A stretch of DNA of 39,777 bases, from the IMG/VR virus record IMGVR_UViG_2537562191_000049. One strand, 5' to 3'. The notes under the pieces were generated by a model, which did no database searches, was not told the DNA's origin, and worked only from the letters and a program-made list of their open reading frames with translations. The translations under genes were made by a program, and so were the position numbers. The DNA comes from a virus (lineage: Duplodnaviria; Heunggongvirae; Uroviricota; Caudoviricetes). Of this stretch, positions 34,058 to 34,722 are shown in pieces (within the stretch, counting starts at the first letter, position 1; each line of letters opens with the position of its first letter).

Positions 34058-34528
34058 ATGACAAAATCATGGAGCGTACCTTTTCCTGAATCAGAAACTG
34101 AACATGATGGAATGCCTGTTTTCTGGAGATTCCAAGCGACAGTTGAAGAAGATGGAATCAAAATATTCGCACTTCAATATATAGCTTTTCATCAGACAGA
34201 TCATTATGCATGGTTGGTTCCTGCGCATTGGATTGTTAATTTTAAACCAGCACCAAATCAGTGGTTACAGGAATGGAAACAAAGGAGAAATAGATATGCA
34301 ATTAAGAAAGTAGCAAAAAATGCCGAAAGATCTTTTGCATTCCCGACGAAGAAACTTGCCATTGAAAGTTTATTGCGCCGGAAGAAGTACCATTTAATGA
34401 GAATCAAACAAGATTTGGCTGTTGTATCAACTCTTGTTGATGGGATGAAGAATATTGATACATCAATACCAGATATTGAATATAACTTTGGACACAACCA
34501 AGAAACAGAAAATTGGGTGTTTTATTAG
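34058..34528 (+). CDS. Hypothetical AT-rich protein (156 aa) in the pL operon
   Basis: ATG with SD gaggtgag; composition noticeably more AT-rich than flanks; followed by a 9-bp-stem hairpin and an intrinsic terminator. Confidence 0.55.
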   Translation: MTKSWSVPFPESETEHDGMPVFWRFQATVEEDGIKIFALQYIAFHQTDHYAWLVPAHWIVNFKPAPNQWLQEWKQRRNRYAIKKVAKNAERSFAFPTKKLAIESLLRRKKYHLMRIKQDLAVVSTLVDGMKNIDTSIPDIEYNFGHNQETENWVFY

Positions 34529-34542
34529 TACGAATAAGCACT

Positions 34543-34570
34543 GTGTATTCATTCCAACGAGTGAATACAC
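34543..34570 (+). other. Perfect 9-bp-stem hairpin without a U-run
   Basis: gtgtattca-ttccaacgag-tgaatacac; not followed by a T tract. Confidence 0.4.
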
Positions 34571-34631
34571 GGAGCAATGTCGCTCGTAACTAAACAGGAG
34601 CCGACTTGTTCTGATTATTGGAAATCTTCTT

Positions 34632-34656
34632 TGCCCTCCAGTGTGAGGGCCTTTTT
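34632..34656 (+). terminator. Intrinsic terminator (tL-type) upstream of the cIII-like gene
   Basis: gccctc-cagtgt-gagggc followed by cttttta. Confidence 0.55.
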
Positions 34657-34722
34657 ATATGCATACCAATAACGCTTCACTCGAGGCGTTTTCGTTATGC
34701 AATCAAACAGAAGGAGCATCCT

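Follow-up and report, generated by a model that had tools for sequence, protein, structure and literature searches.

The window analyzed here, a 39,777-nt stretch of DNA (IMG/VR record IMGVR_UViG_2537562191_000049), is a lambdoid prophage whose early left (pL) operon lies on the + strand. Between ral and cIII this operon contains an open reading frame (ORF) for a protein of 156 amino acids (aa), designated orf156 (34058-34528, +), followed by a hairpin (hairpin 1, 34543-34570) and an intrinsic terminator. A sequence-only reading of the region had treated these as one horizontally acquired unit, a moron ending in a terminator of its own. Our analysis points to two independent elements, namely a cassette carrying a gene of the HK97 gp45 family and a block of phage backbone that encodes the small RNA (sRNA) PreS and ends at terminator tL2a, set side by side by mosaic recombination. 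The gene would be a lytic-phase accessory gene. We assign this explanation a probability of about 0.7.

The two elements were separated by alignment with lambda. From orf28 through ral to the linker ...GAATAAACAC(A/T)GCACTG, the window and lambda share 97% identity. After the linker, lambda continues with TGTATTCATTCC..., which is hairpin 1, and then with a second stem-loop, the terminator and ea10. The same sequence is present in the window at 34538-34650, identical at 113 of 113 nt, and lies 498 bp further on, after orf156. Since this block occurs in lambda without the gene, the hairpin and the terminator are phage backbone sequence. The assignment of both structures to the gene therefore had to be abandoned; they belong to the published PreS/tL2a.

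The segment absent from lambda (34040..34537, +; 498 bp, GC 0.355) comprises a ribosome-binding site (RBS), the ORF and 9 nt after the stop codon, and no BLASTN match to it was found in the lambda pL region. It is flanked on both sides by imperfect copies of a linker repeat, GAATAA..GCACTG. The homology to lambda breaks off right after the left copy (34023..34039, +; GAATAAACACAGCACTG), and at the right copy (34532..34543, +; GAATAAGCACTG) begins the invariant block common to the window and lambda. In HK97-type phages, the match to the window sets in only at about 34042. Only 18 nt, including a GAGG Shine-Dalgarno motif (34048-34051), precede the ATG codon within the cassette. A crude consensus scan found no sigma-70-like promoter upstream of the gene in either the window or HK97, and no terminator-like site was found within the cassette. 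By its sequence, the orf156 unit is thus an ORF-only cassette lacking its own promoter and terminator, and not a moron in the strict promoter-gene-terminator sense. We propose that it was inserted at the short linker repeat between ral and PreS.

The small RNA PreS and its surroundings

In lambda, the sRNA LPR1, renamed PreS, is encoded between ral and ea10 and ends at the early left operon terminator tL2a (bioRxiv 10.1101/2024.10.31.621285). An RNA of ~88 nt and a processed form of ~68 nt were described there. Lambda PreS depends on Hfq and appears in the lytic but not in the lysogenic cycle. It activates translation of dnaN, whose ribosome-binding site it opens, and represses alaS; phage DNA replication and plaque yield increase in its presence. 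According to the same source, tL2a was at first regarded simply as a pL operon terminator.

The homologue in the window occupies 34572..34658 (+; 3′ end approximate), as placed by the published primers and by the identity to lambda. Its 5′ end at 34572 (GAGCAATGTCGC..., GAGCAATG) was set by the published cloning and T7 primers, and its 3′ end, a U-tail after GAGGGC, by primer P1104. The CTG triplet altered in the M1 seed mutant is intact at 34611-34613. PreS consists of a 5′ stem-loop (34571-34612), a single-stranded seed (~34606-34632) and tL2a (34633..34656, +), which has a 6-bp stem with five GC pairs (34633-34650) followed by a C and T5 (34652-34656). The intrinsic terminator noticed in the sequence-only reading is therefore present, and the HK97 record annotates a putative terminator at this site. 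The fold predicted for 34569-34657, with a 5′ stem-loop, an AU-rich single-stranded seed and a terminator, has the standard layout of an sRNA, in which tL2a (the stem, then C and U5) forms the 3′ end and the proposed Hfq-binding tail.

The likeness to lambda PreS extends to the operon, the orientation, the seed and the stem-loop-plus-terminator architecture, and sequence identity runs from 34 nt 5′ of the PreS 5′ end through the terminator stem. On this sequence evidence, 34572-~34658 is a homologue of the already known lambda PreS sRNA. The neighbours differ: upstream, a gp45-family gene takes the place held by ral in lambda, and downstream the place of ea10, which is missing from the window, is taken by cIII. 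With the gp45-family gene directly upstream, PreS in the window constitutes the 3′ untranslated region of that gene. A further difference concerns the U-tail, CUUUUUAUAU in the window and GAUUUUUUAUC in lambda, which is one U shorter here. No Rfam family was found at the PreS position at either gathering or permissive thresholds, and PreS was therefore identified through the literature only. The paper on the Pas sRNA does not mention lambda, cIII, ral or tL2.

A 31-aa ORF (34577-34672; MSLVTKQEPTCSDYW...) lies wholly inside PreS and its terminator. Its equivalent in phage phi367 (GenBank PV189406) is annotated as a coding sequence for a 'hypothetical protein', which is probably a mis-annotated sRNA.

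The distribution of the block was analyzed by scanning IMG/VR with a 26-nt pattern of the PreS seed, which yielded 120 loci; the seed itself is fixed by this pattern. Outside the pattern, the block 34538-34650 was found to be nearly invariant (110-120 loci). Divergence is abrupt on both sides; it sets in at the GAATAA..GCACTG linker on the upstream side and immediately behind the terminator stem on the downstream side. The gene directly 5′ of PreS is ral in 31 loci, orf156 in 18, and a member of at least 13 further ORF families in others, so that the upstream slot holds at least 15 families in total. Directly 3′ of PreS, ea10 is found in 40 loci, cIII in ~48 and at least eight other genes elsewhere, which gives at least 10 families for the downstream slot. 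All combinations of the slots were seen, for example N-PreS-cIII, N-ral-PreS-ea10 and N-orf156-PreS-ea10. In lambda, ral and ea10 hold the same variable slots around PreS as orf156, and both are small, dispensable, N-dependent early genes, as orf156 would be. The ral-orf156 tandem of the window is rare: it was observed in two of 335 matching phage records (phi367 and phi296) and in none of the 18 IMG/VR loci carrying the gene. PreS thus travels with many different neighbours in lambdoid and Shiga toxin (Stx) phages, including clinically relevant Stx converters, and this conserved sRNA with its terminator is easily misread as the private terminator of whichever gene lies upstream.

Hairpin 1 has the sequence GTGTATTCATTC-CAAC-GAGTGAATACAC. 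Its nine outer Watson-Crick pairs are perfect, as the sequence-only reading had noted, and the stem in fact extends to 12 bp with one G-U pair and a CAAC loop (dG -14.2). Four hairpins of at least 12 bp with no more than one G-U pair were found in the window, compared to 0.13 expected from first-order Markov simulations, an approximately 30-fold excess. The other three are located at 1073-1103, 13791-13819 and 22786-22815, and none of them is followed by a T-run. The intergenic region 34526-34725 as a whole folds with z = -5.8 relative to shuffled sequences (0 of 200 shuffles as good).

Hairpin 1 ends 2 nt 5′ of the PreS 5′ end and lies outside the 88-nt species. Its sequence is kept in 110 loci, and six others (IMG/VR L017, L033, L058, L073, L079 and L125) carry CCTATAGCAGATTT(A/G)CGAGTCTGCTATG at the equivalent of 34543-34570. 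This alternative allele forms an 11-bp hairpin with a 4-nt loop (dG -11.7), after which identity picks up exactly at GAGCAATG. It pairs in a register shifted by one position and scores equally at slide +2. Counts of covarying pairs are uninformative for the PreS body, which is near-invariant. The occurrence of an unrelated hairpin at the same place argues that some hairpin, whatever its sequence, is needed just 5′ of PreS. Most likely, to judge from these alignments, hairpin 1 marks a PreS processing site and/or protects the 3′ end of the upstream mRNA, and it would then act as a structural boundary between that mRNA and PreS.

The orf156 gene and its product

The ORF has an ATG start and is clearly protein-coding. 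Among 12 alleles, 2, 6 and 18 polymorphic sites were found at codon positions 1, 2 and 3, respectively, and the product gave a full-length match to phrog_1636 (E = 1e-111, residues 1-156 of 156). Its homologues, with 55-98% identity, come from Escherichia, from Salmonella phages and from Pectobacterium, Brenneria and Rosenbergiella, and share 42 invariant columns. The gene is the same as HK97 gp45, 933W L0079, phi24B vb_24B_11c, Stx2-86 orf57 and Min27 ORF20, all of equal length; the identity to HK97 gp45-type proteins is 98-99% at the amino acid level (98% to HK97 gp45 itself). The family is therefore long catalogued and the gene is already known. These relatives in HK97, 933W, phi24B, Stx2-86 and Min27 are all annotated as hypothetical, and a search of the literature on L0079, HK97 gp45, vb_24B_11c and phrog_1636 found no functional study.

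Computation of the base composition bore out the claim that the gene is distinct from its surroundings: its GC content is 0.361 and that at third codon positions (GC3) 0.287, compared to a GC content of 0.42-0.50 in the neighbouring genes and 0.451 in the rest of the pL operon (33159-37485 minus the insert). Compared with other 471-nt windows, the ORF ranks in the lowest 0.8% for the part from 31000 to the end of the analyzed sequence, and in the lowest 2.5% for the whole sequence. The gene is polymorphic by presence and absence: lambda lacks it, HK97, 933W and phi24B have it, and it was detected in 598 of 5426 complete Escherichia coli genomes (about 11%) in up to four copies. The junction to the PreS block is identical in the window and in HK97/933W/phi24B-type phages. 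In HK97/933W-type phages the gene directly follows N, whereas in the window it follows ral. Its accessory nature, deviant composition and presence/absence polymorphism agree with the moron proposal; its autonomous promoter and terminator fail, with 18 nt on the 5′ side and 9 nt on the 3′ side of the ORF.

As the cassette has no promoter of its own, transcription would start at pL and pass the terminator-like hairpins at 33656-33686 and 33981-34002. Being located behind them, orf156 would be reached only by N-modified RNA polymerase and would belong to the delayed-early genes of the lytic phase. Such N-dependent expression of orf156 is consistent with lambda, where the adjacent PreS is made only in the lytic cycle.

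The predicted product is a soluble protein of 18.6 kDa with an isoelectric point of 9.07. Its maximum Kyte-Doolittle hydropathy is 0.71, and it therefore has no transmembrane segment; a SieB-type membrane exclusion protein was rejected for want of a hydrophobic segment. The charge is unevenly distributed, with an acidic N-terminal domain (net -5), a basic stretch at residues 61-135 (net +12) and an acidic tail. Residues G33, T47, K87, A101 and K109 are conserved family-wide, together with the basic residues R24, K83 and K84.

Remote homology and structure prediction, proposed as checks in the sequence-only reading, did not identify the protein. AlphaFold performed poorly with 19 close homologues (predicted local distance difference test score, pLDDT, 53.6) and gave a usable model only with an 82-sequence alignment including distant representatives (pLDDT 95.2, predicted template modelling score 0.82). 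The modelled fold has an N-terminal domain with an antiparallel beta-sheet (residues 19-55 and 83-86), short helices, a 33-residue helix (98-130) and an ordered C-terminal tail. No significant relative was found in a fold search of solved structures (PDB) with this model. Sequence searches of Pfam, NCBIfam, PADLOC and PDB, whether based on the single protein or on profiles, produced no match above noise; none of the defence-protein models of PADLOC-DB matched at E <= 1 (0 families). Neither Pfam PF11058 (Ral) nor another anti-restriction family was found for orf156, the Ral match belonging to 33792-33992. Homology to the positional analogue Ea10 of lambda was rejected, as BLASTP gave no alignment at E <= 100.

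When 1.8 billion representative proteins were searched with a profile, 83 relatives were identified, mostly stand-alone proteins of 130-160 aa; two apparent multi-domain relatives of 940 and 444 aa (P0063 and P0075) were discarded as repeat or low-complexity artefacts. A search of BFVD gave 13 significant matches from phages of Proteobacteria and Bacteroidota, both temperate and virulent; all of these proteins are uncharacterised. The family ranges over lambdoid, N4-like, Erwinia jumbo-like, Cellulophaga, Rhizobium and Vibrio phages. The contexts of distant relatives, a hand-picked set, were clusters of hypothetical early genes: relatives are located after a cI-like repressor gene and before RecT and SSB genes, beside xis-int, and in early small-gene clusters of virulent Pantoea and Klebsiella phages and of an N4-like Achromobacter phage. 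As in the window, the gene exceeds its surroundings in AT content in four of six relatives.

Our best guess is that orf156 encodes an N-dependent lytic-phase accessory protein and not a prophage-expressed defence gene product. That orf156 lacks a promoter, is located in an operon under repressor control and has homologues in virulent phages argues against the latter. The protein may bind nucleic acid or an acidic host partner, and it would act as a dispensable accessory factor in host takeover or counter-defence.

Alternative explanations

The moron concept reportedly goes back to the comparison of the HK97 and HK022 genomes. If orf156 were a classic moron, it would form an autonomous unit of promoter, gene and terminator, would be expressed from the prophage and would, like sieB or rex, protect the lysogen by superinfection exclusion or defence. 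The AT-rich composition and the presence/absence of the gene between conserved neighbours, both shared with the morons of lambdoid phages, speak for this, as do the terminator-like hairpins on both sides of the gene and the existence of exclusion genes in this region of lambda. However, such morons are autonomous, lysogen-expressed units, and orf156 is part of a repressed early operon. Hairpin and terminator belong to the PreS/tL2a backbone found in lambda without the gene, the 18 nt before the ATG contain no promoter-like site in the consensus scan, and PreS, directly downstream on the same strand, is silent in lambda lysogens. In addition, orf156 lacks the transmembrane segment that the 129-aa ORF downstream of cI possesses, has no PADLOC match and has relatives in virulent phages. 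A classic moron is thus very improbable. Nearly as hard to sustain is the view that the RNA elements are only a terminator and a stabilizer of the mRNA 3′ end, with no functional sRNA being made. The U-tail shorter than that of lambda (5 U) and the first description of tL2a as a simple pL terminator would suit it. Against it stand the 100% identity of the PreS body and seed to lambda, the occurrence of the same U-tail variant in many loci, and the near-invariance of the block over ~117 loci with variable flanks (the 26-nt seed being fixed by the search), which is more conservation than a terminator needs.

Two more specific roles of the protein are each unlikely on balance, and to the same degree, but less so than the two readings above. 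One is that of a specific anti-restriction or anti-defence inhibitor acting alongside ral. The gene adjoins ral in a variable early slot, is an early gene of both temperate and virulent phages and is dispensable, since lambda lacks it; in Pantoea phage LIET2, a DNA methyltransferase gene is located two genes upstream of the homologue. Yet no similarity to known anti-defence proteins was found in the libraries searched, the adjacency to ral is the exception among phage records and IMG/VR loci as described above, and the strongly basic centre is unlike the acidic DNA-mimic anti-restriction proteins. The other is that of a nucleic-acid-binding factor serving the phage itself in early transcription, replication or recombination. 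All structural matches fell below any significance threshold, no DNA-binding Pfam domain was found and lambda does without the gene, all of which tells against this role. The properties of the protein seem to favour host takeover, counter-defence and phage-internal regulation alike, and counter-defence is no more than a possible role.

Several points weigh against the explanation by two juxtaposed elements. As the promoter scan was a crude consensus scan, a weak or non-sigma-70 promoter upstream of orf156 is possible. The shorter U-tail may lower termination or Hfq binding, although this variant is common among the loci examined. The PreS report, to the extent that it was searched, does not settle whether the 5′ end arises by processing or from a promoter of its own, which makes the role of hairpin 1 a conjecture. 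Sequence searches of Pfam, NCBIfam, PADLOC and PDB and the fold search assign no function to the protein, and the role proposed for orf156 is an inference. Finally, an insertion sequence (IS) interrupts the replication region of the prophage, so that the operon as a whole may have lost its relevance for a viable phage.

A bolder, combined proposal, which we regard as speculative and on balance unlikely, is that the gp45/L0079 family represents an early protein of new fold acting on a conserved host target, and that hairpin 1 is a modular insulator and processing element. If so, the target could be, for example, RNA polymerase or nucleic acid, contacted via a Tudor/SH3-like barrel and the basic helix, and the family would be an unrecognised takeover or counter-defence factor. 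Hairpin 1 would fix the PreS 5′ end under any upstream cassette, which would explain the invariant island between hypervariable slots. The gene orf156 also occurs in 933W-type Stx phages and is a reasonable, though not urgent, target for screens of anti-defence or host-takeover functions. With both elements already known, what remains of interest is the function of the protein and its possibly new fold, the conserved structural hairpin upstream of PreS, and the correction of annotations in which PreS figures as a coding sequence or a private terminator.

Other features of the operon and the prophage

The gene order in the pL operon of the window is N, orf75, orf28, ral, orf156, PreS, cIII, followed by kil-like, erf, abc2 and ea22-like genes. 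The N-like antiterminator gene is located at 33159-33431 (Pfam N_peptide, E = 5e-15) and cIII at 34723..34893 (+; phrog_550, E = 1e-22), so that the position of orf156 between them had been given correctly in the sequence-only reading. A genuine ral (restriction alleviation) gene directly upstream of orf156 (33792..33992, +; Pfam Ral, E = 2.2e-48; phrog_1055) had escaped that reading. Positions 33700-34039 show 97.3% identity to orf28-ral of lambda, and the 3′ flank of ral leads into the linker found in front of PreS in lambda. The homologue of lambda orf28 (33722-33808) is an acidic 28-aa ORF (MEEEFEEFEEHPQDVMEQYQDYPYDYDY) which overlaps the ral start codon; its sequence is identical to the orf28 region of lambda, and its RBS context (TTATTTGAGGTGA) closely resembles that of orf156.

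Three further terminator-like structures were found in this part of the operon. A 14-bp hairpin followed by TGTTTTGG (33656-33686) overlaps the stop codon of orf75 (33432-33659) and is a candidate for a tL1-like terminator that would separate the N-orf75 genes from the orf28-ral cassette. Another lies across the ral stop codon and is followed by a T-run (33981..34010, +; nine pairs, six of them GC; tail TATTTTTGG); the alignment showed it to be present in lambda too. The third, followed by TTTTCGTT, is located just 5′ of cIII (34671..34698, +) and corresponds to the ea10-cIII sequence of lambda with 97.5% identity over 40 nt; it is probably the tL2b region. Because ea10 is absent, the two terminators before cIII are only ~20 nt apart.

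Downstream of cI (31689-32405), and overlapping its stop codon, lies the 129-aa hydrophobic ORF mentioned above (32402-32791; maximum hydropathy 2.29; phrog_6534), a membrane ORF which occupies the position of rexA/rexB in lambda. It is a better candidate than orf156 for an exclusion or defence gene expressed in the lysogen.

The replication region contains an IS3-family insertion sequence of 1310 bp (29453-30762) with 25-bp terminal inverted repeats (TGAACCGCCCCGGG...); cII (31001-31366, -) lies on one side of it and the O-like and DnaB-like replication genes on the other. Since the O-like ORF (28615-29529) begins inside the element, the replication initiator gene is apparently interrupted, which probably leaves the prophage defective. 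The element carries orfA (30382-30708, -) and orfB (29495-30385, -), with an ALIL frameshift pseudoknot (RF01497, 121 bits) at 30311-30427 (-).

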